The notes beneath the pieces were generated by a model that was not told the DNA's origin, made no database searches, and saw nothing but the letters and a program-made list of their open reading frames with translations. Shown here in pieces: positions 15,527 through 63,010 of a stretch of 64,000 nt of DNA. Position numbers and translations under genes: made by a program. The DNA comes from Marsupella aquatica. Taxonomy: Eukaryota; Plantae; Marchantiophyta. The DNA is taken from the NCBI GenBank assembly GCA_973895155.1, contig OZ316895.1, forward strand, positions 928,435 to 992,434, written 5' to 3'. Position 1 is the stretch's first letter, and every line of letters begins with the position of its first letter.

Positions 15527-17400
15527 AAGTAAGAGCTTCGGGCCAGCGATAGATATACCCCCGGAGAAGGACGATGACTACCGACGGGACGACCCGAAGC
15601 TATTTTTCCCCCGCATCAAAGAATTGGTAAAGAAACAGCTGGAGGCCTACGAAGCTCGGGAATACCAGAAGGCAATCGATAAGGACATCAAAGCAGCCAA
15701 GACAGCCCGGCGACAGGAGCAAGAAAAGCAAGATAAGCAAGAGGAAGCCAAGCAGCAGCCGAAGGAAGAAAAGAAGGAGGACTATGATATTAAGGAGGAC
15801 GTGAAGAGTTGCCCGGTTACAGCAACGGTAGGACAACTGCTGCAAAACAATCCACAGTACAAACGGCAACTGAGGGAGTTGCTTACGGGTCGACGATGGA
15901 GAAGACTACCCCGAGTTGGGACCGCGGATTGCAACATGATATGCGAGGACCTGGGAGCGTCGGACATCTCGATTGAAATTAATAATTGTACCATCAGGAT
16001 GGTTCTCGTAGACGGAGGAGCGGGAGTCAACATCATGACGGAAGAAACGTCAGTCAAGTTAGGATACCTCACGTATCAACCCACAGCCCGAGCTATCAGA
16101 TTAGCAAACGGGGCAAGGGTACTTCCATTGGGCACGCTTACACGGGTACTCACTCTGGTAGGAGGGGTGGAGTTCTATCTCAACTTCCTAGTCATGAGGC
16201 CGGTTCGGCCCTCCTCTTATCCGGTCCTCCTAGGCAGGCCGTGGCTGTACGGTGGCCGTGTGGTCACGGATTGGGGAAAGAAGGAGCTACGGTTCGGGAC
16301 ACCCACAGTACGGGTATCATGGGCAATGGACGATTATCAGGGCGAAACCCCACAGGGACCCGAGGAATATGATTCGGAGACCTCGGAGGACGAGGAACTC
16401 AACATGATTGAACTCATATCGTCCCTGTCCAAGGAAGATGTCTTCGGAATTGAGGCAACCCGCGAAACACATCTCCTGAATTACCCGAAGGCTGCTATTG
16501 AGCCCACCCCAAGCACCTCTACTGCCCGGGATGAGGAAACGCAAAAACAACTCATCGATACGGAGGACCCGGCTCCAGCTAAGCAGGGAGCCGATGTTGC
16601 TTCTACCAGTGCAGAGCCTCATGACCACGAACCAGCCAAACAACTGGTCGGGGCTGAAACCCCGAGACCAAGACATAAGAAACGAGTCTCCTGGGATCCG
16701 TCCATCCCGCAGTTGGAGGAAGTCACTCCAATCCCGAGACCAATCCCGGTTCCACTCATGTATGGAGGATTTCGGTTAGCTGAACTTGATGCGAGCCTGG
16801 ACCCGAGCTTGCGGAACCAGGTTGAAGTCATCAGGAAGGAGCACTACCGGAAGTACACCATTGGGATGGATAAATCGTTTAACCTGGGCCACGCTCTGAC
16901 AGGGAGGCGGAAAAATCTATCCAAGCTCTGCTCAAGGAATATGAAGATGTGTTTGCATGGAGCCATCACGATTTAACAGGAGTCTTCCCCGAGTTAGGAG
17001 AACACACGATTGATTTGAATCTGGGGGCCCATGCAGTACGGCAGCGACAACGTCGCATGAACCCAAGGTACTCCATCTTAGTGAAGGAGGAAATTGATCG
17101 TCTCCTCGCCGCAGATATCATCTACCCGGTAATGGCCAGCGACTGGGTCTCTCCCATCGTCATTGTACCGAAAAAGGGAGGAACGGACGGAAAACCTAAG
17201 ATCCGGATTTGTTAGGACTATCGTAAGCTGAACGACGCGACCCGAAAAGACCATTACCTGTTACCCTTCACGGATATGGTTCTAGATATGGTAGCCTGAA
17301 ATGAAATTTATACATTCCTTGACGGGTATTCGGGTTATAACCAAATCTGGATTCGCCTCTCGGATCAGCTCAAAACAACGTTCACTACGGAATGGGGGAC
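15471..17400 (+). pseudogene. pol: Gypsy pol: aspartic protease and N-terminal half of reverse transcriptase
   Basis: MVLVDGGAGVNIM...LLGRPWL; after a frameshift, FAWSHHDLTGV...WVSPIVIVPKK...KIRIC*DYRKLN...FLDGYSGYNQI. Confidence 0.85.
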
Positions 17401-31100: not shown

Positions 31101-31979
31101 GTAGCGTAGACTACTATTTTGGATCCAGCGTCAAAACAGCCATTACAGGTACGCCTTTCATCTATGTTTGGGTTCATTATTGATTAGGGCCTCTCAACTC
31201 TCAAAGCACTGTCTTAACGAGTATGAGTTGGCCATAAGGAGAGTGTGTTATGGGAACGACCATAAAAGTTAAACGATGCCTAACTTGGCTTCCATAAAAA
31301 AATGTTGCGGTCCACCCAAACCTGAAACTTCATTTTTGAGACTTTGAATTTGCGTCATCATAGAGTTATCACAAGATTGCGTTATCCAGGGACTGAAATG
31401 ACATGCCAGTCAATTTGTATTATTAGAAAGCTATTCATTTGTGACCGCTTGTTGAGGTAACAGGTTTGGGCTTGTTCGACAGGGGCGGGCCAAAAACACT
31501 TACTCTGAGCAGGAGTATTCATAACTCATTCCTTAGCACAAGTCAATGCATATCCTCCCTGCACCCAATGGCCCGTAAAGTCTGGTCATAAGGTGTTTTA
31601 TGGACACAACTGGTGTCCCATAACTTTTCCTTACGACCCTGCCTTGAGACGCCCTATTAAAAGCACAAGCCGAGTGCCAATTCTTTGAACCTAGAGAAGG
31701 TCAATGTGAGCACATTCAAGCCCTTTGCCAATTTGACTCCTACCCCAACTTTGGTTACACCCCAGTTAGGGTTCACAGGTTTCAGTCTGGACCCCAGGCC
31801 CTGAAGAGTAGCTTTAATTAAATTCAGGGGACATAGATTCATAGGCAAACTGAAGACTCAACATAGAATTCATGAGTGGAAGTGCAGCTTGGCTTGAATT
31901 GCAGTTTGTCTCCAAAGCTCACCACAAACAATTTGTATGGAAAACTACCCTTTCAGTAGCCACCTAGTTAGTGTATGGG

Positions 31980-32515
31980 TGTCGTGACATATAGTATCGT
32001 AGCCATAGTGTATCGAAAACATACAAGTCACCGGCAAGGCATTTGTTCAAGCTGCTAGCAACCAACATGCATAGAAAAAGTCCAATCACATTCACAAGTG
32101 CCAAGAAAAAGCAAATGAAGTGGTATGTACGTAGTGGAGGTGTAAACCTCTGTATAATAAAAGGCGTAAGAGAAACAATTGTACTGAAATCGAATCGAAA
32201 ACCGGCAGGATGCCAAGATCGGTCGGGAGCATCTAACGAATCACTGTGTGAATCCCGTGTACGGAACCGACGAGCATTGTCTGAGCTCTATCAACAGCGA
32301 TTCAAGAAAAACTGAAAAACCCACAAACAAAGACATGCCCTAAGTAAACAAAGTCCTGGCGTCACACTAACAAGCGCGTTTGCTTCAAGAACGCCTAGCA
32401 TTTGCTATAAGAACATGTCGCTAACTCAAGTATTACACTAGCCCTAACTACATACCTAGCGGACATGTGAGGGACATGCCGATGTGCATAAGAGGCACTG
32501 TCCCTCGGCATGACA
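31980..32515 (-). repeat. Terminal repeat unit A+B (536 bp) at the element's 3' end
   Basis: TGTCGTGACA...GGCATGACA. A = 31980-32155 and B = 32156-32515. Homologous over its full length to the solo unit 63049-63583. Confidence 0.92.
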
Positions 32516-32517
32516 GT

Positions 32518-32694
32518 TGTCGTGACATATAGTATCGTAGCCATAGTGTATCAAAAACATACAAGTCACCGGCAAGGCATTTGTTCAAGCTGCTAGCAAC
32601 CAACATGCATTAGAAAAAGTCCAATCACATTCACAAGTGCCAAGAAAAAGCAAATGAAGTGGTATGTAAGTAGTGGAGGTGTAAACCTCTGTAT
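32518..32694 (-). repeat. Second copy of repeat A, separated from B by a 2-nt spacer
   Basis: About 3 differences from 31980-32155. The junction reads ...GGCATGACA-GT-TGTCGTGACA... on the plus strand. Confidence 0.92.
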
Positions 32695-32701
32695 CCCCCC
32701 C
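32695..32701 (-). promoter_or_regulatory. Polypurine tract (G7 on the sense strand)
   Basis: CCCCCCC on the plus strand abuts repeat A exactly, about 30 nt past the integrase-PHD stop codon. Confidence 0.65.
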
Positions 32702-32733
32702 AGACCACAGCCAAAAGGAGGGCTGAAGAAAAT

Positions 32734-34063
32734 TCAGGTAGCACATGGAGCACAGGAAGGGTGAAACCATAACCCTTGTGCCACCTGGGTAAGTTCAGGC
32801 CGAAGGCAGAAAAGATGGTACCCTCCATTGCAATTGTCACACAGCAGCATCTGGTCAGCATCATCAATTCGCAAACACACTTTGCAAGGGTAGTCCACAG
32901 GTGGAATCCAAGTAGAAGTCACAATGGTGGGATCCAGGTTAGGCAGATGACAAGGGGCGCAATTCTTGGCATTGTCAGCAATTGTGCGCCCATCTGCCCC
33001 TTGTAACTCTAGCACTCCAGACGGCCGAATAACTTTAACCCTGAGAATAGTATGACTGGTAGAGGTGTCCAGGGTGTCGTTAGCTTGCCGCTGCAAGTAC
33101 ACAAAATCTCCCACTTCAAACTTCCTGACCTTGGGCTGAAAAGTGCCCCCTCGTGTGTGTGCATAACGCAGTGTGTCTCTGTGCTGTGCGATGGCCAAAT
33201 TCTCCATGGCCATGGGCATAACCCTCCTGAATAGGGCAGCCCTCTCAGAGATCACATCAGACCAAGTTACAGCTGAATCCAAGTCTACCACCTGAAGCAT
33301 GTGAGCAGCAATAGCAGAAGGTGGAACTGGGTGACGACCAAACAACAAGAAGTAGGGAGAAAAGTTAGACAGTGATGCATGTCTGGACATCCTATACCCC
33401 ATGGCAATGTAGGGTAAGGCCAGGTCCCAATCCTCCTTGTTTTTGGTGAGGCAAATCTTCCGGAGACCCTTCTTGCATGTCTGAACCATGCGCTCTGCCA
33501 AGCCATCTGCCTGTGGGTGATCTCATGATGTCCGGCGATGATCAATGAGAGCCTGATCAAGCAGCTCCTGGAACTCTCCTCTAAACTCTGAGCCCTGGTC
33601 AGCGAGACATTCTGCACAAGCTCCAAAGCGGCTGAGAACTTATTGCAGGAATGCCTGGCTGGTGCTACGGGAGGTCTTATCCGACAATGCCACAAGTTCT
33701 ATCCACTTGGAGAAATGCTCTATCATGATCATGATGTAGAGATTACCCCGAGACGTGAGGGGTAATTCTCCAGCCAAATCACATGACCAGCGATAAAACA
33801 TGCCCTAAATAGGGAGTGGATGAAGTGGGTTGCCGAGATGTGAAAGAAGTCCTCACCCTATCACACTGGGCAATAACATCTCGAACCTGGCCATGCATGC
33901 CTCTCCAATGATAATGAGGGACCAAAAGGCTGTAAGTCCTCTTAATGCCAAAATGACCAAGCTCAGAATGTACCTTACGGATAAGGCCAACCCTCTCATG
34001 AATGGGTGGAACCACCACTTCCCTGTCTGGCAAGCAACGCACAAGATGATTTCCTTTCCACAA
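32734..34063 (-). pseudogene. DDE integrase with C-terminal PHD finger (frameshifted)
   Basis: Zn-binding HSELGHFG...C; core DLAGELP, DQGSEF and AERMVQTCK; SPYFLLFGR; then CKVC...MLLCDNCNGGYHLFCL...WFHPSC (C4HC3 PHD, seventh ligand altered to H). Confidence 0.88.
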
Positions 34064-34096
34064 GTAACGCTTGGACCTTTGCTGAATTCGGTCTCT

Positions 34097-34912
34097 CTAC
34101 ATGTATGGGGTACCCCCATGCTGCAAAAATCTCAGAGTGTCGTTGTCCTCCCATATGTCCACCACAGGTTGGTCAACAACATAGCATGGCAGCAAAGCAA
34201 GATAGGTAGATGCATGAAATGTAGGCAGGATGGAAACCTGGTCAAAATCTTGTCGTGCATCTGAGGAATCATCAAAGGCAATCAAAGGGCTGCGGGACAT
34301 AGTGTCAGCATTTTGATGTGTCACACCAGGCCTATGAATTACCTCAAAATCATACTCCTGGAGTATGAGTGCCCAACGAGCAAGCTTGCCAGTAAGCTTG
34401 TCGTTGGTCATCAACCACTTCAAGGGTTGGTGGTCGGTGTAGAGAACAAACCTGGTCCCATAGAGGTAGGGCCTATAATGTATGACAGCCCACACAACAG
34501 CAAGGCATTCACCCTCATAAGAAGAATAATGACTCTCTGCCTGATTGTTGCTCCTGGATGCATAGGCAATGACGTACTCTTTACCTTCCTCATCATGCTG
34601 GCCCAGAATGGCACCAATCCCAAGGGCACTCCAATCTGTGTGTAGCACAAAGACCTTGCTGAAATCAGGTCTTCTTAGCACCGGGTATTCTGAGAGCTTC
34701 TCCTTCAAAGTGGCAAATGCTGCCTCAGCATCTGTACTCCATGTCCAAGTCACATTCTTTTTCAACAAAGCATACAATGGGTGTGCAATGGTGCTGAAAT
34801 CTTTGATGTAGATCCGGTAGTAATTGCACAACCCAATAAAACTCCTCAAAGTGTGAACATCGGTAGGAGTGGGCATTTCCAAGATGGATACCACCTTGGC
34901 CCAGTGAGCCAT
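34097..34912 (-). pseudogene. Ty3-type RT connection and RNase H
   Basis: LRSFIGLCNYYR, LHTDWSALGIGAIL, YSSYEGECLAV, YTDHQPL, NADTMSR. In frame with RT across a single stop at 34988-34990. Confidence 0.92.
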
Positions 34913-34987
34913 GGTTCCATTTGGAAGAATGCGGTGCCCAAGGTATACTACTGATCTGATAGCAAATTCACACTTCTTGGGGTGTAT

Positions 34988-35700
34988 CTATAGGTTCACC
35001 TTCTTAAGCCTCATGAATAGCTCCTCGAGGTCAAGTAGATGCTGGTCAAATCCTTTGCTGTGGACCAACACATCATCAATGTAGCATTTGAGAAACTCAG
35101 CACCTTGAAGAACCTGGTCCATGACTCTTTGAAAGAATATGGGCACATTCTTCAAGCCAAATGGCATCACCAACCACTCCCATAGTTGGTTACTACCATG
35201 GAAAGTTGTTTTCTTGCGGTCCTTTGCAAGCAGCAAAATCTGGTTAAAGCCTTGCCTTAGATCCACAAGAGTAAAGATGTCTGAGTCTCCAATGCTGTCA
35301 AATAGCTCCTCTGGCCGTGGCATGGGGTACCTGTCTTGGGGTGTGACCAGGTTCAGTGGCCTGTAGTCCCCACACATGCGCTTCTCTGTCCACAATCCAT
35401 TGGAATCCTTCTTTGCTGGCATCACTGTAGCTGCTGCAAAATCTGATGTAAATGGCTGAATAAGACCAGCTTCATATAACTCTTGGCACCTCTCATCCAC
35501 CAGCTGCCACTCATGCTTACTCAAACGATGTCTCCGCCTAGGTGTTTCATCAGCCAACTCAATGGAGAACTGCATGGTCTTGCACTTACCCAAGTCCTTC
35601 ATAGAGAAAGCAAACACGTTCTCATGCTTGAGGAGCAAATTCAGCAGCTGGTCCTTCTGTCTTTTACTCAGGTGGTTGCCCATGATGAATGTGTAGTTGG
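34988..35700 (-). pseudogene. Ty3-type reverse transcriptase
   Basis: RMCGDYRPLN, DRYPMP, DLRQGFNQI, KTTF, VMPFGLKN and YIDDVLV in ORF 34988..36475. Confidence 0.95.
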
Positions 35701-36049
35701 CAACACTAGGAATAGGACCTGATGTACTCGTGCTTGAAGAGCCAGAAGTGCTAGCCTCTCCACTGTCCAAGCTGCTAGCATGCTGCTGATAAGGTGATGA
35801 GGCCTCTCCAAGGCCTGTTGTATCTGTTGCTCTGGTCTGATCCACACCATGAAACTCAGAAATAATATCAGCCACGTTACAAGGGACCTCCTCCCCCCCA
35901 ACACTTGGACTGAAGCGGTGAGTGTTGAATAGAGGTAAGTGCACTTGGTCTGGGTGCCATGTAGCAGCACCATGGAGTGGTAGGGCTGGAACTCCTGATG
36001 CTGGATGAATGTACATCTGAAAAAGGATGCAAGTGACCAGAAGCCAAGT

Positions 36050-36965
36050 GAGAGCATTAAGATCCATTACCCTACCAAGTAAAGCATTCCTGGCCAGCTT
36101 GGTGATTTTGGTGTGGCATCTAGTACCGGGTTGGAAGCCCATAGCCCGTTCTCTCTCCTCAGGACTAGGTTCATCCCATGTACCGGTAGAATGTCGGTAA
36201 ACCAAGCCAGGACCATCACCCTGAAAAGCATGTGCACCTGGAAAGGACACAAATGTAGGCCAAGCAGCACGGGGCTGTCCAATGGTATTGGCTGGATACC
36301 AAGGTGCTGGCTCTTGCTGTGTAACTGGTTGGCAAGAACTGTCAGGATCCAAAATCTGGTCCACTGTGAGGTTAGTGTCCCTGGATGTGTGGTGAAGAGC
36401 TAACTCCAACAAGAAAGGTTGTGCAAGGTTAGTCCAAAAGTTACGAAGACGATGTGCATAAGAACCACAGTGCACTGCATCAATGAGAAGGGTGGTCCCA
36501 AGTAATGCTGGACCACACTGAAATCCTCTTTGACCTGTGGACGCTGGTCAAACTGAGATGGAATATTCTCAATGATATAGCCAACAGCAGGATAAAGGGA
36601 TTGAGCCCAGGTGAGAATCTGAACCAATGCTGTGAAAAGGCCAGAACGAGAATCATGCAGTCCAGCAGCTGAAAACCCTTGGCATTCCCAACCAGCTATG
36701 ATCAAATCAAGGGAGCCAAGAAGGTTTAAGTGTCGGTGCTGGACAAGCTGGATATCTGGAGGGAAGAAAGAAAATGCAGACTTCCATGCACTGTGTGGAA
36801 ACTATTGGGGAAATCGCTCTGAAAATTCCAGCAGACGGGATTCAGCCATTTGCCTTGCACCTGGATCAATGTCCACGTAGATGTACTGCTTCACCACCAT
36901 GCCAGACTGTAGGAGAGCTTCCAAGCCTGTAGAAATGCCACCAAAAAGCTCAAGCAATGTAAGGC
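36050..36965 (-). pseudogene. C5 cytosine DNA methyltransferase domain, DNMT3-like, embedded in pol
   Basis: Motifs in canonical order: I LLELFGGISTG, II YVDID, IV DLIIAGWECQGFS (catalytic Cys kept), VI YIIENI, VIII AHRLRNFWTN, IX ERERAMGF, X RNALLGRVM. One in-frame stop (36802) and one frameshift (near 36490). Confidence 0.85.
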
Positions 36966-37299
36966 CATCCGGAGGAGGAGTCCATGTAACTGGTGCGCTC
37001 AAGATTGGGGCTATTGGTTGTCCATTGTGCTGCCCAAGGTCCTCAAATTTGTGCAATGTAGCCACCAAAGGTCCATGGGCTGCTTGGAGCCGTTGTACCA
37101 CCTCTGGTTGATGATCCACATTGATGGGAAGTGCTGCTATACGTGCAACAACATGTGCAGCAGCCACCTCATCATCATCCTCCTCAATCCAATCCTGCAA
37201 TGGGTGGTTGACATAGGTAGCTGTGTGCACTGCTTTCAAAACACAGTGGTGAGCCATAGGTGTATGAGCACCATGCAAATCAAGTGGAATGTAGCCCAA

Positions 37300-37779
37300 G
37301 TGTGAGCCATCCGTATGCCAATCAACTCTGTAGTATGCATGCTCATGCCAGTTGTCAATGGTAAAACCTGGTGGGAACAAAGCCTCCTGGCCAATGAGCA
37401 CATCATACGTAGTGGCATTGGTAACCAAACATCTGACTGGGAAATGCAGTTCCTGATCTGTACCTCCATTAAAAGTGAGAGTGAGTAAAGTAGAACTCTC
37501 ACCCAGCACATCCTCCACAGTGCCACTAGTAGTCCAAATGTGCCACTTGGATTGCTGTAAATGATTAGTCAGCAGTCCCATCTTCTTGGCAAACTGAATG
37601 CCCAATATCATTGGTTGAGCACCTGTGTCTAGCATGACCACCTGAGGAGTGTGACCGTCCAACTTGACCGCTGAATTCATGTTGGCAACAATGGCAATGG
37701 TGGTGGAAACTGAAGTCCTATCGCTAGGCACCACTTTTGGCAAATGATGAGGTACTTTGTGAAGGGAGTTAGTGTCCAC
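37300..37779 (-). pseudogene. Retroviral-type aspartic protease
   Basis: VMLDTGAQPMILG...YDVLIGQEAL in ORF 36802..37779, in frame with DNMT motif I. Confidence 0.85.
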
Positions 37780-37813
37780 GGTGTCCGGGTGACCATGTAA
37801 TCTTGTAAGAGCA

Positions 37814-38998
37814 TGTTGGCTCTTACAAAGTTAACTTTGCATGCCCATAAGTTCTACACTAAAACTAAAATGATAATTCTAGTAACAAGGGTAGTGGGTA
37901 TTAAGAAAGGTTCAGGTGAAACTAAAATACTGTTAAACCCTACTTCACCATACTTGCGGACCAACACATCACGGAAATTAGTTTTCTTACGACATATGAT
38001 CCTAATATCTCCAAGAGAAAATGAAACAGGAATATCATCTGGACTCCTATTCAAGTCCATGACTTCAATAAAAGATAAAGATAATGCATTCCCACTCATC
38101 ACGGTACGACACTACTGGGTATATTATCGGCTCGTTAGAAACCATAACAGCAGTTGCAAACTGAGCTCCAAAATGATAGGTTAAATGTTGTCTCATAGAT
38201 GGTTTGTCTAAAAGATGGACTCTAATCAAAAATGGATTACGAAGGGGAAGATCAGGGATAATTCTCTCTCTTGGATTCATGATGTCTCTCCTATTCCTTT
38301 GCTATCCGGGCCAAAGGACGCCCCACCCCTAAATTCCCAAAGAAACCTTATTTCCTAAGGTCCCATCTATAAGTCTACCACTCATTCCTTTGCTATCCGG
38401 GCCAAAAGACGCCCCACTACTATGTTTAAGGCACAAAGAGCTTCACAACCTTGAATGATAAACACTGCGGAATGAGGGGAGAGTGCCCCTCACCACTTTA
38501 TTTATAGTGCACACCAAGAGGGCATGGATCAAGCCCAAGCACTTGGATAAAGACCAAGTGTCAAACATCTAATACCTAAGAGTGTGCTAGTACTGTTCAT
38601 AGTTGGTGAAACTACTTTTAGTAGGGGGAACTACCATGCATTGGTGGAACTACTGTGCGTTGGTGGACCTACTGTGCGTTGGTGGAACTATTGTGTGTTG
38701 GTGGACCTACTGTGCGTTGGTGGTCCTACTATGCGTTGGTGGACCTATTATGCGTTAGTGGACCTACTGTGCATTGGTAGAACTATTGTGCGTTGGTAGA
38801 ACTACTCATATACATTGGTAGAACTACTCATATGCATTGGTGGAACTATTGTAGTCCGTTAATATTGCTAAAGAAGTTAATAAAGTCTAAATTTAATAAT
38901 CTAACTACTAAACTACTTATATAATCTATAACATATTAAAACATCCAATTTTTTTATAACTTAAGAGAAAATCATGACAACGGACTTTCTATTCAACA
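37814..38998 (-). mobile_element. Nested solo-LTR-like insertion (about 1.2 kb) from an unrelated family
   Basis: TGTTG...CAACA termini. AT-rich and interrupts the gag-protease linker. CTATAAATAA on the minus strand near 38500. Internal tandem array. No clean 5-bp TSD. Confidence 0.6.
38620..38855. repeat. 19-bp minisatellite, about 11 copies (GGTGGA[A/C]CTACTGTGCGTT)
   Basis: Head-to-tail units with no spacers. Confidence 0.9.
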
Positions 38999-39550
38999 AC
39001 ATAGTTAGGAAAGATGGGGCAGCATGACCAAATCAAGTGTAGCTCTGGTCACATAATCTGCAGCAATACTGTCATCTCTACCACTGGAAATTGGTACTGG
39101 GATAGCCAAACCAGTGGAAATATGTAATGGAGAAGAAGAAGGTCCATTATGTACATGAGATTGGACCTCCAAAACCGGTGTCACAGGGGATGATAAAGAA
39201 TGCAGTGAGCCCTCTAGCGCTCTGATGACAGCTCTAGCATCCAGTTGTAAATCATGGCAACTGAAAAGTGGAGTTGTAAGAATCCTTTGTGCCATACCGG
39301 AGGTGAAATGCTCAAGGAGCTCAGGAGAAACAATTCCCTGTGAAATGTCAGCAGCACCTGGTGGTGGAATGGATGTAGCTGCAGCTTCCTCCCCCCTCGC
39401 CAACAAGGTGCGCTCTTCAGCAAGTGTGAGTGGCTGAAAAGATTGGGGCAAGACAGCCCGAGCCCCCCTGGCTCTAGTCATAGGACCGGCAGCAAGACCA
39501 TCAGCCTGTACAATGCGGCGTGTGGGAGCAGTACGGGAGGCTACACTAGC

Positions 39551-41071
39551 CTATTGGTAAGCAAAATAGGAAGGGCAGAATGAATCTGAAAATTCTGCTG
39601 TAAGGCCAGGCTGTGTAGCAGAGGACAGCACACACTCACCCATATGAGCATCAAATGGCAAGCCATAGAAAGAGCGGGGTAGAGATGCTGAACTGTCAGT
39701 GGTGTCTGGGCCCGAGATGGGTTGCACGTGACCAGCCGGTTGAGAAGGACCAACAGAGGCAAGTGACTTGCCTTTGATGTTGGCAAGTTGGGCACGTAGG
39801 GACTCAACCTCATGAGTCAGAGACTGGATTTGAGTTGCCTGTGCATTGTGAGCTTCCTTCTGAGCTGGTTGCTTCTGTTGCTGCTTGGGCAATTTGTTGG
39901 CACTGGGTGCTTTGCCACTGGAAGGAGGAGCAACTGATGCAGTAGGAGCCCTCCTAGCTGGTGGGGGAGTGGAAACAGGAGCAGGATGAGTGGCCTGTTG
40001 TCGTAGCTGCTTCCTCTTTGGGAATTTGGCAAAACAAACTGCCTCCAAGTGGCCCACTTTCCCGCAAAAATCACAAGACAAGTCCTCAGCAACAATATCA
40101 CATTCATTAGCCTTGTGATTTGGGTTACCACAGTAGTTGCAAGATGGCAGCATGAAAGCAGCATGGGCTGGCTTGGTCTTGGAACCATACTGTGGCACAC
40201 GGGAAGGGGTGGCCAGTGTAGGGGCAGCAGCCTGGTACCTGGATCGCGGTGGACGCGCAATACTGGCCTCATAATGTGCATGGGCCAACTCAAGTTTCTC
40301 AGCAGTGTCATAGACATTGAGCAGGGTGTAGCTGTCTCCAAACTTTGAGAATACTTGCTGCAACACTTGCGAATGGAGAGCTGGTGTGCCCTCCAATGCA
40401 CGAAGATAGCGATGAGCAGCTTCCAGGTCAGTGATGCTCTGGGTGTCCTCCTTCAGCTTGAGAAGCTGGCGATACATCATCTTCAAGGTTTCATCGCGCT
40501 GCCTCACAAAGGTGGTCAACTGCATGATTTTGTCAGCACTCTTGATTGGGAATTCCAATTCAAGAACCTGGAAAAACTCAGCCACTGGATCAGCAAAGGC
40601 AGGAGAATCAATGGTGGGAGAAATGCCTGATGTAGCCTGTGCCAAGACAGTGGGAGTAATTGGCGTAGTGGTAGGAACTGGAGTAGGAGGGGAAGTGGCA
40701 GGAGCAGTAGCATGGGCTGCAATGGCATTCTGTAAGGCCAATTGTGAGGCTGCCGCAATTGCACTGGCATAGGTAGGGTTAGGCAACTGTGTGACAACAA
40801 GCAGCCGTTGAGAATGTTGCTCATACACATCCAAAGCCTCATGGTGCACATACCTAGCTAGCTGCTTAAATGCAAAAGCATTTGTGAAATTGCTATCGTA
40901 CTTCAACTCCAATTCATAAACGATAGTGTAGAAAGTGGATTTGAACTCACGCAAAGAAAGAGTGCCTGGACGCCCGCTGAAGCGCTCAATGTGGCCAGAT
41001 GAGTGGCTGACATCCATGCTGTATGTTGGTGAAGCTGGAACAACCACTGATGCAAAAGGAGTAAAGGGCAA
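39551..41071 (-). CDS. gag: Gag-like protein with two CCHC zinc knuckles
   Basis: 506-aa ORF: ERFSGRPG...REFK; knuckles CNYCGNPNHKANEC and CDFCGKVGHLEAVC; lies upstream of the protease. Confidence 0.8.
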   Translation of the reverse strand: MPFTPFASVVVPASPTYSMDVSHSSGHIERFSGRPGTLSLREFKSTFYTIVYELELKYDSNFTNAFAFKQLARYVHHEALDVYEQHSQRLLVVTQLPNPTYASAIAAASQLALQNAIAAHATAPATSPPTPVPTTTPITPTVLAQATSGISPTIDSPAFADPVAEFFQVLELEFPIKSADKIMQLTTFVRQRDETLKMMYRQLLKLKEDTQSITDLEAAHRYLRALEGTPALHSQVLQQVFSKFGDSYTLLNVYDTAEKLELAHAHYEASIARPPRSRYQAAAPTLATPSRVPQYGSKTKPAHAAFMLPSCNYCGNPNHKANECDIVAEDLSCDFCGKVGHLEAVCFAKFPKRKQLRQQATHPAPVSTPPPARRAPTASVAPPSSGKAPSANKLPKQQQKQPAQKEAHNAQATQIQSLTHEVESLRAQLANIKGKSLASVGPSQPAGHVQPISGPDTTDSSASLPRSFYGLPFDAHMGECVLSSATQPGLTAEFSDSFCPSYFAYQ

Positions 41072-41784
41072 AGAAGCAATAGCAGGCTTTGGGGTAGTGG
41101 TGAAGCGACCGCCAAATGTAGCAGAAGGGTTGCGTGGTGTGGGTGCTGTTGTTGTCTGTTGATGCCGTCAAAATTGCTGAGACTCCAATGAAATTGGCAC
41201 CAATGGTCGTGGATCACTCCGTAAGTGGTACTTGGGTGTCGGTGGCGATGAGCTGCTATGACTTGGCTCCTTTGCTAACATGTTGCATGCTCACTCGGGG
41301 TGCCAATGGGAAAGAAACTGAGAAGAAAAAGGTGTGGCAACCCCAAGGCTATGAAATGTAACCCACAAAGGAAACAACACTGCAAGGCAAAAATGTGTAG
41401 ACCGGCCCTGCCGAAAATATACTCACAAGAAAATGAATGGAAAGAAAACAAGAGGAAACGGCCAAAAGGGGCCTCCGTTATGTGTGTAGACAGGGGTCTG
41501 TGTATACACATAAAGGGCACCGGTCGGTGCCCAATGTGGATACATTGTCGGGCTCCCTGGAAGAAAAAGAGGCCAGAAAGAAGCAGGTGTACGCACACTC
41601 GGGAGGCACGGTACCCTATGCTGCAGGGCGAGGCGAGGTGAGGCTGAGGCGAGGTGACAACTTAATGGCTCGGGCCCTGCATAGGGCTTCGTGCCCCACT
41701 ATGAGCTCCCCCTATCCCCCTTTTGGGCCTTGTGCCCTGGCAGTGAGTGACTCCCGAGAGAGGAGTCGAGAGTACTCCCCCCCG

Positions 41785-44700
41785 TTAAGGGTCGTGGGGT
41801 TATTTTAATGCCTCTCGGCTTACCAGAGCTTGCCACGTAGGCAGCTTTATATTTCATTATTTATGGTCGTATTTGGGGTGTATTTATACACTCGAAGTTT
41901 ATGAATACAGCTGGCAGATTTTTCAGACATGCAAATAATTCAATAGGGAGAAATCCCACAGCGGGGAATAAAACTTTATTCATATGTAAATCAAGATTTA
42001 CAGTGACTCGACAGAGTCTAACAAATGAATGCCCAGAAGGCAGTTCTTGACAACAATTAATTGTCTAAAGAATGTCCATCTATAGGTCTATTGTAATATC
42101 TGTCTAATCTGTATATGGAAGTGTTGTCTGTAAACTATCTACAATCTATCAGTGCTAACTCTAACGATAATGCCTCACAGGCTAATATGTGCCTAGGTTA
42201 CTGTCAATAATGCCTCATATGTTTAATGACAGTCCAGAGGATGGTCCTCCTCCATCTCCACCTCCCGGGGGTCCCCCTCCATGAGGACCAAAGTTGAGGC
42301 TGAAACTGCAGCCATTCATGGTGCAATTTGTTAATGCCTTAATATTTTCAAAAACAGTGTTGATTACTGGATTAATCATGACCGGCAAGCGGGCAATGCC
42401 CTTAAATCTTGGTCCGAACAACTTAAAGCATCCCAATCCATGGACTCAAAGAAAATATCCAAGTCAGTATCTGTCTCCTCTTCAACAAAATGCGTTGAAA
42501 CGTCAGTGTCCAGTGTACTCAGGCCCTGTTCAGTAGCAGGTGCCACAAGCTCAACACTCATAGTTGGTGTGACAACTTCTTCACTAACCAACACCTCCAT
42601 AACCGGCTCGGCTACTGGTTGAAGGAGAGTCGGCTCCATTTCTATCACAGAAGGCAAGCTGGACTCTGTAGAATCAGCACCTGCACTCACCAAGAAATCA
42701 CCAAGAAAAGAATGAGTTATATTCAATAATAACATAATCAATAAAAAGTATGCATGAACAAGTCAGCTTGCTCTATTACCTTTGGAAGGGAGCAACTTTG
42801 TTCCGTCCTTCAGTTTCTTAGACAGTGGCTCGTCCACTACAGAAACAGCAGGCCCAGTCACATATTCGCTCTTCTCGCCATCAATAAGCGCCCTCTTGCC
42901 TTTTGTTGTCTCCAAAGTCACTGTCTCAGGGTAAGCAGTCCCATCCGAGGCACATCTAAGTGCCGCTCGCACCTTAGCCTCTGTGCTGCGGTTGTACCTC
43001 TCATATGCACCCTCGCTTTTGTGGCCTGAGATCTTCATCCCAACCTTTGGTGGAACACCCTCAGCTCCCATCCGAGAGATACAGGTGGTGCGTCCAGTTT
43101 TATTGGAGACACCATCAGTACCAAGGCCAGCCTCCTGATGCAACACTTTCAGACAAGAGCCGAGTGTCTTCTCACCAAGCCTCGACGTTGAGTACCATGC
43201 ATGCGTCCGCAGGTGGTCAATGCATTGATAGAAAAGAAATGTTGCACTTACAGGCAGATGATGGATTAACATCCAAAATGTATTGACCACATCAAGGTCA
43301 TAGTTAATCACAGCAGGTCTGAAATGCTCCTCCTGATATCGATCCATACTCACTCTATAGTTCTTGCTAAGGGGCTCATCGTATTTCACAAAATCACCAT
43401 GGACATCAATTGCAAAAATAAAGTCAGCCTTCATAAGATTATACAACTCCTTACCGCCACAAATACAAAACCGATTCAGTAAAAAGAAAACTGCCCTCCT
43501 CTGCAGGCCTCGCGAGTGTGAGACAGAGGTACTCGAATGAGCCAATATGGTGGCCTCATCTGCAAAAGTAATGACAGAGGCTTTCTTCCTTGGCACATTA
43601 GCGCCTGACTTCTTTGAGCGCTCCATTGCCAACACACAGGCCACAGCCACTGGCTTGAACAGAGGTGAAGATCGCATGTCAAACACTCGCTCAGATTCCT
43701 TACCTGTCTCAACCACACGCTTCTCTTGTTTCTTCCGCAAAATACAGTGAAACGCACGATAAAGACCCATCAAGGTCTGTGAGGGATAGAGCTTACCGTC
43801 CTTCTTGCAAACCTGTTCAAAGAACTTTGTCAATAGCATCACACAGTCTCGGCCAGGCATTTCCTCTAACGGAAGTGTGGTGTTCCACCCTTTAAACTCA
43901 TGGAACTTATTGAGCCGATTTGCAGCCCATCGATCAACTGCAGCGCTCGGATTACTACCACCCTCGGAAAGGTTGCGCTGAAACTCTGCATCTTCAGGTA
44001 AGAACTCACAGGAAGTTCCATTTGGGAGATTCACTGTAAGCTGTTGCGAGATCAAATACTCAAGTGCAATAGCATCCGGGTCCCCATTCAGGTTATGAAT
44101 GTCTGATTCTGAAACAAAGCAACAATAGGCACCAGATGAAGTTTCGCCTACAAGATCACAAATCGTTCCACCAGCGATTGCACCTTCGGATGCCATTGCT
44201 GACATTCCAAGGCTGAATGATGGCCCTTGATCCTTGTCCAAGTCTGGTACGTAAGAAAATCATTCAGTTAGCTTAAACGGAGCCTCGATCGGCTGTACAA
44301 CTACAATGGCAGAAGATGAGGTTTTGGAGACAAATGGTGAGGAAGAAGCGGCCCAACCTTCATCGTCATCGCGAGCGCAAACAACAATGAATACATTCAA
44401 GAAAACGGTCAACTGAACCTGGGGATAGTTTTGGAGGCATTATGATGAGCCTTCGATCGCAACGTCAATATACAACACACTGCAGAAAGCTAAGAAGTAT
44501 GTTAGTACTTCTGCATGATCAGGCCAACCTTCTACATGATCAGGCATTCATCTGAGCCTTCGATAATGGCTTCGATGAGCATTCTACAGATATCTGAGCG
44601 GGAGACGTTCAGAAAAATGATTAGTCTTACATAGATCCTTTCCTTCACTTTCAACCACTGCAAGTGATCGTCGCTATGCAAACCAAAATTACCTCAAGTT

Positions 44701-45714
44701 ATGATGAAATCTCGGGAAGAAGGCACGAAGGAGAATTCTGAACATGAGAGACCAAAAACCAACAACCAAATCAGTCCTTAAGCTGAACCGTAATGTAGTG
44801 AATCGAGAGCAAAGCATAAGCATGGGCTTCACATATCTACATGGAGAAAGCATTCGGCTGATTCTGCATAAAGCGGCATTGAAGGAATGAACAATAGCAT
44901 TCAGAATGAAAAGACATTCAAATCAAGCGGCATACATCCAATAAAGCACTCAATACGAATAGAGTAGTTGACAGGAAAAACCAGAGAAGCTGAGATCGTG
45001 CTCCCAGTGAAAAGTAGAGACCAATTGGTCCACTCGCAAGCTCAAAAACTCCAAACGACGGCCCACACCGAGTCGCTCGCAGATGACAAAGCGCACAACC
45101 CGTCCCACACACAATCGCCCGCAGATTCACCAGCGCACACCCGACGCTGCAGAGACAAACTTGCAGCCTAACGACAAAAAGTGAGACAAGGAATTCCTCT
45201 TGCAGATTAAGTAAAGCCCGCCCCAGAATCCACCGACTGGTCCACAAAAATCTCAGCCGTCCATTCTGGGTTGACCGTTGGATGTCGATCTACAAACGCC
45301 CTAAACCCTAACACGTTACGCCGTTGGATGTCATCTTAAACCGTTTAGTTTTGAATAGAGGGCCAAGATTGGCCGCGGGTTGACGAGCCCTGAATGGAGG
45401 GTGAAGATTGGCCGTGGAAAGAGAAACCCTCTATGGAGGGCCAAGATTTCTCGAGACTGGCATTTCAGAATGGAGGGCCTGGATTTTCTTGGAGGAGCGT
45501 GATCCTGCATGGAGGGCCCAGATTTACCGCGGGAAGAACACTGGCAGCCGCGGAGTATTGTAACCTGCAGGTACATTCTTAAATCAATTTGGGCCCTTCA
45601 ATTTTGACGGAGGGTCGAGATGGCATGCAGAGATGGGAGCCATGACTGACACAGCGGCTGGAGGATGCGCGCGTTTTAATCTGGGCCGTTGGTAATTCTT
45701 TGTACGACCCTTAA
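41785..45714 (-). mobile_element. Crypton-like tyrosine-recombinase DNA transposon nested in the retroelement 5' region
   Basis: Bounded by TTAA-GGGTCGT (41785-41795) and ACGACCC-TTAA (45704-45714). Encodes a DUF3504-type recombinase. The reconstructed empty site resembles the neighbouring repeat unit at 45908-45955. Confidence 0.7.
42763..44241 (-). CDS. Tyrosine recombinase of the Crypton/DUF3504 (ZMYM/QRICH1/KCTD1-related) type, main exon; probably inactivated
   Basis: FFEQVCKKDGKLYPSQTL N-terminal signature; ICGGKE (RGGxE with Arg to Cys, TGT from CGT); SKN; NKTGR (HxxR position); MKISGHKS...YERY. Candidate splice sites near 44244 (acceptor), 42778 (donor) and 42681 (acceptor). Confidence 0.82.
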   Translation of the reverse strand: MDKDQGPSFSLGMSAMASEGAIAGGTICDLVGETSSGAYCCFVSESDIHNLNGDPDAIALEYLISQQLTVNLPNGTSCEFLPEDAEFQRNLSEGGSNPSAAVDRWAANRLNKFHEFKGWNTTLPLEEMPGRDCVMLLTKFFEQVCKKDGKLYPSQTLMGLYRAFHCILRKKQEKRVVETGKESERVFDMRSSPLFKPVAVACVLAMERSKKSGANVPRKKASVITFADEATILAHSSTSVSHSRGLQRRAVFFLLNRFCICGGKELYNLMKADFIFAIDVHGDFVKYDEPLSKNYRVSMDRYQEEHFRPAVINYDLDVVNTFWMLIHHLPVSATFLFYQCIDHLRTHAWYSTSRLGEKTLGSCLKVLHQEAGLGTDGVSNKTGRTTCISRMGAEGVPPKVGMKISGHKSEGAYERYNRSTEAKVRAALRCASDGTAYPETVTLETTKGKRALIDGEKSEYVTGPAVSVVDEPLSKKLKDGTKLLPSKGNRAS

Positions 45715-45720
45715 CGCATA

Positions 45721-45839
45721 TTTAGGGTCCCTTCGTGCCCCTTAATGGGGTATGGGGTCTCCCGTACACCTCCCCACTCCCGCGGGTCGGCATACGGTCG
45801 ACCCCAATACCCCATTAAGGGGCACTGAGGGACCATAAA
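45721..45839. other. Imperfect inverted repeat (arms about 35-40 bp, loop about 40 nt)
   Basis: GGTCCCTTCGTGCCCCTTAATGGGGTATGGGGTC pairs with GACCCCAATACCCCATTAAGGGGCACTGAGGGACC. Confidence 0.85.
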
Positions 45840-46608
45840 CATATACTTTAAAGCTGAATTAAGGGCTTCGTGCCCTGCAGGAGGACTCCTGAGAGAGGGA
45901 GTCGAATGTACTCCCCCCCTTGAATGCTTCAGAGTTGCTTAGGGCCTCGTGCCCTGCTTTCGCTTCAACTCCCCCTCCTCCTTTATTCTCCATAGGGCCT
46001 CGTGCCCTCGGTTCTCGCTCCTTCTTCCCTGTTTTAATTGTAATGGCAGGAAGCTGGCAAGTGCATCGGAAAATGAGATGAAACGAAAATGGAGGGAAGG
46101 GGAGAAGTGCCGAGGGGAGGCGCATGGCCAAGAACGTAAGGATGTAATAGGGGCTCGGTCCTATGCAGTCGTGAGGTAGTCGCAAGGTGGCTGAGGCAAA
46201 CTCGCCGGCAGCCGTGGCCGGGAATGCGACCATAAAAACTAACAAAAAAGGCCCCCCCCAAAGTGTCATAAAAACGCGAGCGAGGGCGCAACGGCCTGTG
46301 CAGTCTGTGAAGCGTCGGGGGTCGTGCAGCAGCAGTCGGCAGCACGTCACGGCCGGAAAGTACAAAAAACTGGCCAAAAAAGTCGTGACAGTCGGCAGCA
46401 ATCGTAGCAGCAGCAATTGTGGAAGCAGATCGAGTTGCGGCCGGCAAGAAAAATCCGGGCCCCTTGTTATGTGTATACACTTAACACCACAATAAACCCA
46501 TAACTTTTAACTCGTCACTCCGATGTCCGTCAAAGAAATTGCAATGGCTTCACCAAAAATTGTCAAAATTGTCACGAGCAATCTTCTTCCCGTCACCGCT
46601 AACTCGAG

Positions 46609-46622
46609 AGTTCTTCTTGAAT
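46609..46622 (-). promoter_or_regulatory. Candidate self-priming primer-binding site
   Basis: AGTTCTTCTTGAAT (46609-46622) is the exact reverse complement of ATTCAAGAAGAACT (46764-46777) inside repeat B. No TGG tRNA-type PBS follows B. Confidence 0.65.
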
Positions 46623-46979
46623 AAAAGGCGTAAGAGAAACAATTGTACTGAAATCGAATCAAAAACCGGCAGGATGCCAAGATCGGCCGGGAGCATCTAA
46701 CGAATCACTGTGTGAATCCCGTGTAGGGAACCGACGAGCACTGTCTGAGCTCTGTCAACAGTGATTCAAGAAGAACTGAAAAACCCACAAACAAAGACAT
46801 GCCCTAAGTAAACAAAGTCTTGGCGTCACACTAACAAGCACGTTTGCTTCAAGAACGCCTGGCATTTGCTATAAGAACATGTCGCTAACTCAAGTATTAC
46901 ACTAGCCCTAACTACATACCTAGCGAACATGCGAGGGACATGCCGATGTGCATAAGAGGCACTGTCCCTCGGCATGACA
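46620..46979 (-). repeat. Repeat B (360 bp) forming the element's 5' terminus
   Basis: About 12 substitutions versus 32156-32515 by eye, 11 of them transitions. Ends GGCATGACA followed by TGGG. Confidence 0.92.
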
Positions 46980-47079
46980 TGGGCTTGCACTTCAAATAAG
47001 AGTGGCATTGTAAATTATTGTGACATACCATTGTTTTACTGCCAGCCCAGGGGCCCTATAAGGAACTAGGGGCACAAAT

Positions 47080-56535: not shown

Positions 56536-58044
56536 TCAAAGAAATACAATCAAGCATGCTATATCGTCTTTGCTGTGTCTTTGGAGTGCAGCAGAGACCA
56601 CTCTTTGGGCCACCTCCTGTGCAGTGCCTGGAGTGGACCGAACGAAATCTACTACTTCTTGGCTGCTCATAACATGCCAGACTCCATCACTCGCTATGAC
56701 AAAGAACTCATCATCAACAACCAACTGGTCATCCCAGATGTCCGGCTGTACTGAAAGGTGCTCCTTAAGGTCGTAATCACCAAATGCTCGTGACATTGCT
56801 AATCTATGGTCAACCCTATATATTCCACTTGCAAGAGACCTTGAAACAACACCGCCCTTTGACTCCACCTGAATGAGATCACAAGATGGTCCAGTCCAAT
56901 TTCAAGAGAGGGAATTGTCACTGGGAAATATGTATACAACTCGGAAATCCAAAGACATTCTTAAGAACTTATTTAATAGCTGATTCGTGTCAATATAGCA
57001 TGCATATTGACACGTTGTTATTCAAGCTCATACCAATATTTATTGCCAAGAAAGCATTCGTACCATTTGTCGTTCTTCAGGTTTTTGAGGTTCATGGTCG
57101 ACTGATAAATCAACAGCCTTTCCTCCCCTGGACAAGACAGCCCTCGAGTCACCCACGTTTGCAACTATCAAGTGTTTTCCATTATCCAGTAACAACGCTG
57201 TAGTAGCAGTTGATCCGACGCGTAACTTCATGTCTGTGGTTCCCATACCAATAATTCTGCAATGCGCATCCCATTCGTGATTATCCTCATCTTCGTGATA
57301 GTTCTAACTCAGAGAACGAAATCTATCAGAGAAGACACTGAAAGCAAAAACTTGAGGATTATTGCAGATACATGTGCTGAAATAATTTTCTGTCTGCTAT
57401 CTGGGGTGCTATGTATCATTTTCTGGGTTCCACGCACAATTTAAGCTACTAGTTAAAAATTCTGATATTATTGGATTATAATTATCTGGTTGGTTGTCTG
57501 TGCTTCAATGTTCATTTGCTAGCTCTCACGACTAGGAAGCTATACTGTACTTTCGAGAGTGTCATTTCTGTTAAGCTGGGAAAGGCTCTACGATAATGTT
57601 TCCCAGCCAATGCTGCAATGTCTCTGTAAACTGGAGCAAAAAATTCACACAGTTAGAACTGTATACCGCGAACAATTGACATGTTGAGAAACGACACAAC
57701 AGGATGTAATGTAAGACCGAAGCAGACCTTTTATCAGTTTCATGGTATGCTTCAATAATAGACTTCTTTGGATCCTTCCAAAAATCTTCGTGTGTTGTGA
57801 TGACCTCAAACAGATTGTCTGTTAAGTACACTGCTACATCAGGGCCGGCGTGCCCATCCATTATGGCAAACAAACCTATCTCTTGGTTATCTACTTCCTG
57901 AATGCGGGCCACATGAAAGTCTTCAATAGTAACTTTTCTTCGGCCCTTCACTTTTGCAAACCCATAAGAAACTCGAGCTCTCTTTCCTTCCCTGCCCACA
58001 CGCGGCTCACTGTTTCCTCCTGTCTCCAAAAACTTAATTGGTAC
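56536..58044 (-). CDS. Protein phosphatase 2C (PPM family); exons 58044-57728, 57256-57064 and 56868-56536; upstream exon not resolved
   Basis: GT-AG introns join in frame. Motifs [50 protein letters not shown] and SKDDIACL are all intact. Confidence 0.92.
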
Positions 58045-59769
58045 CTGAGCACAAAAATTGAAGAATAAGCAAGTATGAAACACGCTCAATTCCACATCAC
58101 TTTAACAATGATGGAAACACGAACAAAAATTCCAGTTAGACTTTCCCAATTCCATCATAGATATTTCAATGAACCAGCATGCACAAAGAAAAGAGACATG
58201 GGTTCACAAAGACAGATAATGAACATTCAATTCAACTTTAACTCTTCACGCAATGGGATGTATGTAAGTTTAGGTTACTACAAGCTCCTCTGCAGGACTG
58301 GTCATCAGCTTCGCAACATGTCCAATAACTGATATTCAGTTAAGCGAAGAGCATTCAGTTCCTATACAGCAAAAAATATACAGAATGGTTTCCTGTTCCA
58401 AGGGAATCCAATTGGGTATGGGAGGAGGACAACGCATCCGAAAGATGTGGAGGGAACCATTAGGTTTTCTGCTCACATTCACGGATCATAACTATATGTA
58501 GCACAAGCTGCCTTGAGGCTTCTGACTCAAGTGAACAACAACAGATGGATAGACGGCTATACAACCTTACAGATTGCAAATAAGATCTAGAATCCGCAAG
58601 GCCACTGTGAATACAAGTCTTGCATCCTTATAACTAAAATATATGGCAATTGTTTTATATAGCTCGTGGACTAACAGTGGCAGGTAATGGATATTTCTGT
58701 CTTGCGCAACTTTTGACTAACATTCCAAAACTTTGGAACTGGTGCGAGCACTTTTGTCGCCCCTTGCTGGTTTTCAACATAAAATTACATGTTATCTGCA
58801 CACAAGAGGAAGGAGACAGGCATCGGGCTCCTTCCATCCAGGGAAGGTGTGTCATTGGCTCAGCGAGCAAGTAGGAGATGAGCATCGACCGTGATCCTGC
58901 TCCCATTGAAAAGCATCAAGAGGTAGCTCAACACGAGACCCCAACATGAAAAAAACCACTGCGTCTCTACCTTCATCAGTGCTATTTTCTCCCCCGCTAT
59001 TCCGTCCCTTGTATTGGCTGACTGTGGTAACCACCTTGTGAAATATATTTCTGTCCTCAGCACTAAAGTTACTTTAGTGACGCCTCTTACGAAATCCTCT
59101 GGTCTCCCCGTCGTGTGATACTGAGTCGCTGTTGACTCTCCTGCGTATCAACTTGTTTCTCAGAAAGATTTGTGTCTGACATAGTTGTGGAAGTACTGAC
59201 TGAGGAGTGAGCAGTGGAAAATGAGATTCACCCTTTCACGTCCAGATACTTACCAAAGTATCAGCTATCGCCATTGATTAAGAACGGCAACGGGAGAAAG
59301 GGCACCAAAGACGGCCTGAGGACAGCATCTGCAAGGCAAGGCAATCGACAAATGAGCTTGTAAACCGAGCGCATTCGGTAAGTTCTCTGTTTCAAAAGGA
59401 AAAAAAATATCTCACTCATTCTACATTGATGCAGCAAGTAAACTGCTCTGACTACCTAGATTCATGCCACACGCATTTTACAGGAAGTCTTTCAGCCAAA
59501 GATGTTATTCACTTGACTACTGTAGGCTAGCTTGTACTCCTCACTTTGGTATTAATTTTGCAATTTGTATGATTAATTCACCAATCTCTATATGTTACCA
59601 ATTCTACCTACTGAGGGCTCTAGACATAAAATTTCTCTCTATCGATCTCAGGGAGAAGAGCTGGATGAGGCCGCTCACACAAGGCCAGAATGGGTACCAT
59701 GAGCCAATTCGAACCTAGACCAGGAGAATGAGAGCGATATGACTTAACTACCGGGTAAAACCCTATCAT

Positions 59770-62375: not shown

Positions 62376-62649
62376 CTAGCATAGTAAAGCTTACCAGGGT
62401 CAATGATGCTCCGTACGTACGCTACCAAGTCTACGACAGGAAGCACTATTTACGATCACGTAATGTCTTCTTGTGAAAACATAATGGATTATCCAATGGA
62501 TTATGTCTACGGTTTGTTTTTGTCTGGTAGGACTAGGCAAGTCACAAGCATTGGGATTGAATGACAAATCCACCAAAATCCACATTGACCCTACTCCAAC
62601 TGCCCACATAGGAGCCTTCCTATTTTCACCTATGGCATTGTTAGAGATT

Positions 62650-63010
62650 TCTCAAGTCCTTGTATGGATTGAAGCAGTCTCCCAGACAATGGAACAAGCG
62701 ATTTGATGATTTCATGTTTGCTCAAGGTTTTACAAGGATGGTGTATGATCCTTGTGTGTATACAAAATCAATCAAGAATGATGTATTTGGTTTCATCATT
62801 CTAGTTATCTATGTGGATGACATGTTGATTGTGACTAAAGATCAATCTGAGGTTGACAATCTCAAGGCAAAATTGAGTGTTGAATTTAGGATGAAAGATC
62901 TTGGTAAGGCCAAGAGGATCTTAGGGATGGAGATTTTTAGGAACTCTGAAACTGGACAATTGTGTTTGAGTCAAGGCCAGTATGCAAGGAAAGTTCTTAC
63001 ACGGTTTCCA
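62650..63010 (+). pseudogene. Ty1/Copia reverse transcriptase fragment
   Basis: LYGLKQSPRQWNKRFD...DPCVY...YVDDML...MKDLG...ILGMEI. Confidence 0.9.

Follow-up and report, generated by a model that had tools for sequence, protein, structure and literature searches.

Introduction

Gypsy protein domains combined with DIRS-like repeats are on record for KnitGypsy-Dnmt3 of Klebsormidium nitens, in the legend to Fig. 4c of de Mendoza et al. (2018, PMC5890265). Self-priming is described for the Tf1/Sushi and Tcn1 elements (PMC6317226), and the integrase of a foamy virus is reported to cut a junction palindrome in vitro, after CA and on both strands, leaving 2-nt overhangs (PMC1180852). Gypsy-7a_cRei, which is active in laboratory Chlamydomonas, has a PHD finger in its Gag-Pol and a left long terminal repeat (LTR) that stops 8 bp short of the end of the right LTR (PMC9940879). 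Here, we analyse a Ty3/Gypsy retroelement with split direct repeats, A and B, in a 64-kb stretch of the liverwort Marsupella aquatica (contig OZ316895.1, positions 928,435 to 992,434; hereafter the window). The initial annotation of this stretch named REM1 as the nearest precedent; KnitGypsy-Dnmt3 is closer, REM1 being described as having only a truncated, reverse-frame integrase remnant (PMC2774666).

The split-repeat layout is real and clade-wide, and we infer a non-canonical integration route. We favour, at a probability of about 85%, a reading in which the LTR holds an internal palindromic attachment (att) site and the ends made by reverse transcriptase (RT) are newly joined, in either order. 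The layout has been known since 2018; the route appears to be undescribed.

Layout and predicted priming of the window element

On its sense (minus) strand the element reads TGGG, B(360)-internal-A(177)-AC-B(360)-A(176), TGGG, with TG...CA outer ends. The coordinates and lengths first given for this layout proved exact on re-reading (Table 1). The two A copies are identical at 174 of 176 aligned bases, with one indel, and the two B copies at 348 of 360. As had been claimed, the polypurine tract (PPT), a G7 run, directly adjoins the inner A on the sense strand, and the primer site adjoins the outer B. The att-like junction of this copy is CACGACA-AC-TGTCATG on the sense strand, and the B|A junction at 32156/32155 reads as the joint of both RT-defined ends.

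The primer site, just past the outer B, has 14 nt complementary to the B stretch at 46764-46777. The resulting helix of primer site and self-primer is present in the minimum-energy fold of the predicted 5' RNA of the window element. Self-primer pairs of differing sequence occur in four families and, between the window and a sister family described below, primer and site differ at paired positions on both sides. At 10/10 5' ends of that sister family the self-primer motif is preceded, 31-32 nt upstream, by a TATA box, and the predicted 5' RNA of locus L010 has a z of -4.95 against shuffles. The window element has, by its predicted transcript start, a Tf1-type self-priming arrangement. A tRNA primer was considered and rejected: the site is without TGG and pairs with B instead. 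No tRNA gene was found within the 64-kb window.

Table 1. Features of the window element and of the solo repeat, in window coordinates (TSD, target-site duplication)
Feature	Position	Strand	Basis or remark
TSD TGGG, element 3' side	31976-31979	.	sequence
Outer A (176 bp), closes element with CACGACA	31980-32155	-	174/176 identical to inner A
Inner B (360 bp)	32156-32515	-	B|A junction at 32156/32155
Spacer, GT on + strand	32516-32517		sequence
Internal att-like palindrome CACGACA-AC-TGTCATG (family spacer GC)	32509-32524	-	conserved in sister and distant families
Inner A (177 bp), starts immediately after PPT	32518-32694	-	sequence
Polypurine tract, G7	32695-32701	-	position matched in 52/52 sister-family insertions
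Internal region	32695-46619		between inner A and outer B
Primer-binding site	46609-46622	-	complementary to self-primer within B
Outer B (360 bp), opens element with TGTCATG, no A on either side	46620-46979	-	sequence
Predicted transcript start and self-primer inside outer B	46764-46777	-	sequence complementarity
TSD TGGG, element 5' side	46980-46983	.	sequence
Integrase: HHCC remnant, D-D-E core, C-terminal PHD finger; stops/frameshifts	32734-34096	-	
Reverse transcriptase and RNase H, one stop inside	34097-35440	-	RVT_1, RT_RNaseH
C5 cytosine methyltransferase-like domain in pol, broken, approximate bounds	35950-36970	-	PF00145
Aspartyl protease	37377-37668	-	
Gag with zinc knuckle	39551-41167	-	
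Nested Crypton/DUF3504-type tyrosine-recombinase segment (likely)	41784-45845	-	ORF 42763-44259
Solo B-A including TSDs	63045-63587	-	independent insertion in Copia pol frame

Recurrence of the layout in the family and its relatives

The layout extends beyond a one-off in the window's own family. A solo B-A at 63049-63583, 93% identical, has TG...CA ends and its own 4-bp TSD, TCAA, and the Copia frame that it interrupts resumes across it. At its B|A junction one base is missing relative to the full element, and the same shorter form is found in read contigs. In contigs over 32430-32760, many unrelated flanks attach at the start of B and at the end of A, and the start of A is joined to the PPT in some contigs and to B in others. 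Many of these contigs run across the A-GC-B junction, with GC as the majority spacer; in run X1, GC makes up a summed depth of 41,576/44,571 over 19 contigs. Summed contig depths were not taken as copy numbers, copies being counted from read contigs and relatives. Because GC is the majority family spacer in run X1, the AC of the window copy is likely a private change. This corrects the earlier description in one point: the spacer of the family is GC. No PPT-to-B joint was found in the four runs compared with 32430-32760, of which run X5 had only 2 contigs. Read contigs support the structure at 31980-32694 at its single junctions; they are short, and none spans the whole element.

Counts for the sister family are all based on the best 80 of 394 confirmed metagenome loci, at 67-83% protein identity. 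Eighteen loci were dropped for lack of a usable 3' flank or LTR match, leaving 62 loci that represent 52 insertions; L024 and L067 were restored for the junction table and tree only. A blastn search of the window A and B against all loci gave nothing at E 1e-3, the sister LTRs being unalignable to those of the window, and the repeats of L010 and L042 were therefore used as queries.

The PPT is followed by A in 52/52 independent sister insertions and by B in 0/52, and B runs into a uniform primer site in 10/10 tabulated 5' ends. Both observations support the earlier proposal that the LTR that RT would copy is A-NN-B, where NN is the 2-nt spacer. All 11 visible 5' ends (11/11) start with B, with no A preceding. 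At the 52 3' ends, 23 insertions read A-B-A, 24 stop at the first A (int-A copies), 2 are interrupted versions and 3 end in B, one of the last having B fused to the last ~35 nt of A. Nine full-length copies were seen, four of the form B-int-A-NN-B-A (ABA copies) and five B-int-A; TSDs are exact over 4 bp in six, match at 3/4 bases in two and are lacking in one. None of the nine has the two ordinary LTRs that would have marked the layout as a one-off. The inserted form is, as had been suggested, a permutation of the cDNA predicted for an A-NN-B LTR.

The att site CACGACA-NN-TGTCATG, internal to the LTR as had been proposed, is common to the sister family and the window. The spacer is 2 nt long in 24/27 sister copies by automated best match and in the other 3 by position; the automated match gives GC, AC or GT in 22/27, and AC and GT would be the expected outcomes of cytosine deamination of GC. 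Retention of a GC overhang at int-A ends is not enriched (2/24). At 45-53% identity, GACA-GC-TGTC occurs 56-108 nt past the G-run in 4/6 distant loci (L082-L085), as the sole exact match in each, with a chance expectation of ~0.003 per 200 nt; the att core is conserved in relatives down to ~46% protein identity. L083 reads PPT-A-GC-B-A-flank with two bases lost at the junction. L082 and L085 have self-primer pairs of their own and the order PPT-A-GC-B-primer site-internal, likely from collapsed assemblies.

Three sister loci have unusual ends. In L022 (~1955), a full-length B-int-A copy, B is preceded by GC, as if an overhang had been kept. The 5' B of L050 (2230-2330) opens with a tandem partial duplication of its first ~97 bp, within an exact TSD. 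In L078 (~3985) an exact B end is followed 2 nt later not by A but by 655 bp of the element's own interior in inverted orientation, possibly by aberrant end joining or as an assembly chimera.

Uniform and variable junctions

Three junctions are uniform among copies (PPT|A, A-NN-B and B|primer site), and B|A is variable. Classified by eye, the B|A junctions of 27 sister copies are full in 1, one base short in 10, three bases short in 10 (the class with an AT overlap) and shortened by larger deletions, of up to ~220 nt, in 6. These classes are unclustered on the integrase tree, with 13 changes against 13.2 after shuffling. A 4-nt indel in B, taken as a control, does cluster (2 changes against 8.2). 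We regard this tree test of non-inheritance as supportive, not decisive.

Inner and outer A diverge by 9.1% within one element and by ~13% between elements, and no fixed differences between inner and outer A were found among the sister copies. In 4 full-length copies the divergence of the A pair follows that of the B pair; in the window element the A-pair value is lower, not significantly so (p 0.16). Because the B|A classes are scattered over the tree and the A copies lack fixed differences, each new insertion likely forms its outer A and its B|A junction afresh, from an A-GC-B-internal-A-GC-B cDNA. The int-A and ABA copies are intermixed on the tree (18 changes against 17.1 shuffled) and the int-A copies are no older (terminal branches, p 0.44), so B-int-A copies likely arise at insertion, through one-LTR circles or annealing of the two A copies.

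Proposed integration route and its alternatives

Transcription would start inside the outer B, and the first 11-12 nt of the RNA would prime reverse transcription just past B; given the complementarity found, self-priming is likely. From the positions of the primer and the PPT, RT should then produce a linear A-GC-B-internal-A-GC-B whose ends are without TG and CA. These unprotected ends are likely joined imprecisely, often via the AT microhomology, which would give the variable junctions found, and would form a two-LTR circle. Integrase would engage the left LTR copy, the one that is double-stranded first, cut it after CA on both strands to give processed-like ends with 2-nt GC overhangs, and insert it with a 4-bp TSD as B-internal-A-GC-B-A; this product is the one found in genomes, and the cut leading to it is likely. 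One-LTR circles or A-by-A annealing would yield B-internal-A copies with no 3' B, which are likely dead ends.

An internal cut of this kind is biochemically plausible, since foamy-virus integrase cuts its junction palindrome. In the general scheme of reverse transcription, plus-strand transfer is followed first by completion of the left LTR, and integrase may for that reason load on this copy; such loading is the putative source of the left bias. The putative methyltransferase of the element might mark which site is cut. We put at even odds the order in which the ends are joined into a two-LTR circle before integrase cuts the palindrome. In a wider formulation, which we consider probable, the ends that integrase uses have, throughout a green-lineage Ty3 clade, been uncoupled from those that RT makes. 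Integrase would act as a site-specific endonuclease on a hard-coded GACA-GC-TGTC in the left LTR copy only, with end joining rebuilding the second repeat in every productive insertion; about half of the events would then end as dead B-internal-A copies.

Several observations weigh against the favoured reading. The simple two-LTR circle first proposed has two equivalent att sites, so a mirror form, B-A-NN-B-internal-A, should be about as frequent. It was looked for and found at 0/11 visible 5' ends and in 0/5 full-length int-A copies, with an upper 95% bound of 45% of that class. Its absence calls for some asymmetry, and the left bias is an extra assumption; the internal att site is supported, and the symmetric circle as first stated is not. 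The circle, the cDNA ends and the cleavage are predicted from genomic copies, and the sister loci are old copies from short-read assemblies. The integrase tree is poorly resolved (3/51 branches starred), which weakens the test of non-inheritance. The full-length copy L022 lacks a TSD, and L086 and L087 have no att site after the G-run within the only 420-511 bases downstream. In the window itself, the predicted 5' RNA folds no better overall than shuffles (z -1.1), and at -31 the window family lacks a clear TATA box.

The same product would be reached without a circle if a linear cDNA were cleaved internally and then repaired, so the sequence does not call for one. Integrase could cut the left-LTR palindrome on the linear cDNA and insert both half-sites; the host would heal the chromosome break, with its free B end and free A start, either by end joining to B-internal-A-GC-B-A or by annealing of the A copies to B-internal-A. 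This order accounts for the 24/52 int-A insertions, intermixed with ABA copies and no older, and fits the large junction losses in L043, L058 and L011 as well as the inverted piece in L078, although L078 is a single case and could be a chimera. Without a preference for the left site it too predicts the mirror form. The cost of a chromosomal double-strand break with each insertion would be high, and the nucleus usually joins free cDNA ends quickly. We hold cutting before joining to be possible and rather unlikely. Less probable again is a jump of RT from the end of B to the end of A via 1-3 nt of microhomology, after which integrase would open the palindrome, with no host end joining. The two precise junction classes around the AT overlap (20/27) speak for such a jump, whereas the larger deletions in 6/27 look like resection.

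Copying of split repeats from a full-length RNA, with insertion of a circle by a tyrosine recombinase, is the route of PAT and Ngaro elements, whose A1-B1-A2-B2 layout is alike (PMC4157794), and the window copy contains an open reading frame (ORF) that resembles such a recombinase. That ORF is absent from 89/89 fetched loci, including the four full-length ABA copies, and lies in a segment that other copies bypass, with its first catalytic Arg lost here; the DDE residues, the 4-bp TSDs with TG/CA ends, the PPT and the self-primer are conserved. We consider the PAT/Ngaro route largely refuted and very improbable; a need for the recombinase in cis was likewise rejected. It is scarcely credible that an ordinary element with B-A as its LTR was rearranged once or misassembled. 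The solo copy does resemble an ordinary TG...CA LTR and no long read spans the locus, but an ordinary element should join its PPT to B, a joint missing from the sister insertions and from the four runs, while A-GC-B is bridged by many contigs and the layout recurs in families with unalignable LTRs.

Coding content and clade membership

The interior of the window element contains gag with a zinc knuckle, protease, a C5 methyltransferase-like domain, RT, RNase H and integrase with a PHD finger. Stops and frameshifts break this coding region and, judged by its sequence, the window copy is therefore dead. The methyltransferase match (PF00145) is barely below the cutoff in the window copy (E 1.7e-4) and clear in relative P0046 (E 1.6e-9). 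The initial description as a DDE-integrase Gypsy element was borne out by the domains; the methyltransferase domain, the recombinase-like ORF and the solo B-A had been overlooked.

Domain matches give gag followed by protease, RT, RNase H and integrase (PR-RT-RH-IN), with a Ty3-type RT, and among solved structures the best match of the intact relative P0008 is Ty3 Gag-Pol (E 1e-94). Relatives have rve and Integrase_H2C2 domains, consistent with a DDE integrase with HHCC, and D, D and E are kept in the broken window copy. The TG...CA termini and short TSD are those of Ty3/Gypsy; two complete identical LTRs ending at the primer- and PPT-defined ends are not found. The window element is assigned on these features to a PHD- and methyltransferase-bearing Ty3/Gypsy clade, as a decayed member.

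Relatives of the integrase-PHD region number 214, with named matches from liverwort, peat moss, Marchantia, Klebsormidium and chlorophytes. The distance from the second D to E is 35 in 105/105 scorable relatives (P0007-P0126), a one-residue gap with respect to Ty3 and PFV (prototype foamy virus) that might affect substrate or target geometry. Eight loci came from the genome collection: 2 were weak and left unused, and the other 6 are likely eukaryotic contigs in prokaryote bins. The retrotransposon contigs L082-L087, likely algal, are probably contaminants of the bacterial and archaeal genome bins in which they lie. A search of the viral collection for relatives gave one weak match only.

Nested segments and other features of the window

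The recombinase-like ORF (42763-44259, DUF3504/Crypton type) has its first catalytic Arg replaced and lies in a segment that is likely a nested insertion; a joint 41783->45846 bypasses these 4062 bp in contigs of 3/4 runs. Inverted repeats of 13 bp lie near 41781 and 45704, and positions 45718-45842 form a 125-bp hairpin. The close protein relatives number only 6, one of them named from a liverwort. The H-x-x-R motif usually has H at its first position, and these relatives have K there. Another ~1.25 kb between gag and protease (37780-39030), which includes a 19-bp tandem array at 38585-38812, is bypassed by contigs in 3/4 runs.

Elsewhere in the window, 13610-17400 (+) holds a separate Gypsy-type gag-protease-RT remnant unrelated to the element, and 57571-58101 (-) a weak PP2C phosphatase match (E 7e-5), possibly a host exon. 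Nested Copia pieces occupy 62645-64000, where an RT segment adjoins a protease/GAG-pre-integrase segment in abnormal order; the solo B-A lies in the latter.

Comparison with known systems

The usual view is that the ends of linear cDNA are the substrate of DDE integrases. Whether circular or junction-containing cDNA is ever a real substrate is an old open question of retrovirology. The genome fossils point to a clade that would use an internal or junction route as its normal one, on a 12-bp substrate that is directly testable. If true, this would explain the layout left unexplained in 2018, and the insertion of circular DNA could profit from an integrase with a short internal site as its target. 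We found no description of this integration route in the literature; theses, Repbase entries, the REM1 paper and figures or supplements not seen may hold one. The available part of a 2026 preprint on methyltransferase-bearing elements does not discuss repeat layout. The survey behind REXdb required two matching LTRs with TG...CA (PMC6317226), and surveys of this kind would be expected to miss this high-copy clade.

KnitGypsy-Dnmt3 is alike in its Gypsy domains, the cytosine methyltransferase inside pol and the DIRS-like repeats (PMC5890265), and the window element has the same layout and the same methyltransferase position, weakly in the window copy itself and clearly in P0046. In the accessible text of that paper the layout takes up one legend sentence, which is silent on TSDs, an att site, priming and mechanism, and no element sequence or gene id was found in 3 of its supplements (PMC5890265). 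Three K. nitens proteins, which may or may not be those of KnitGypsy-Dnmt3, match the integrase-PHD region at 49-53%. Gypsy-7a_cRei shares the PHD finger in Gag-Pol (PMC9940879). The 8-bp deficit of its left LTR would be expected from the present layout if A were 8 bp long, and it may be a clade member with such an A, which we offer as a lead only.

With canonical and self-priming Ty3/Gypsy elements (Tf1/Sushi/Tcn1) the clade shares PR-RT-RH-IN, the DDE integrase, the PPT, a self-priming site, TG...CA ends and a short TSD (PMC6317226). As in Tf1 and Tcn1, the primer site is complementary to the transcript 5' end, here at its predicted start. The clade differs from Tf1 and Tcn1 in having a PHD finger and no C-terminal chromodomain, and from canonical elements in that its TG/CA ends are not the RT-defined ends and its inserted repeats are split. 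The split direct repeats are shared with PAT, Ngaro and VIPER (PMC4157794). Those elements integrate by a tyrosine recombinase in place of a DDE integrase (PMC4157794), whereas the window clade has a DDE integrase, TSDs, a PPT and a primer site. The PFV integrase is a parallel, being likewise of DDE type and cutting each strand after CA in a palindrome whose halves are 2 nt apart (PMC1180852). In PFV that palindrome is formed by joining the cDNA ends (PMC1180852); in the window clade it is built into the LTR sequence, and the joint between the two ends lies elsewhere and varies.

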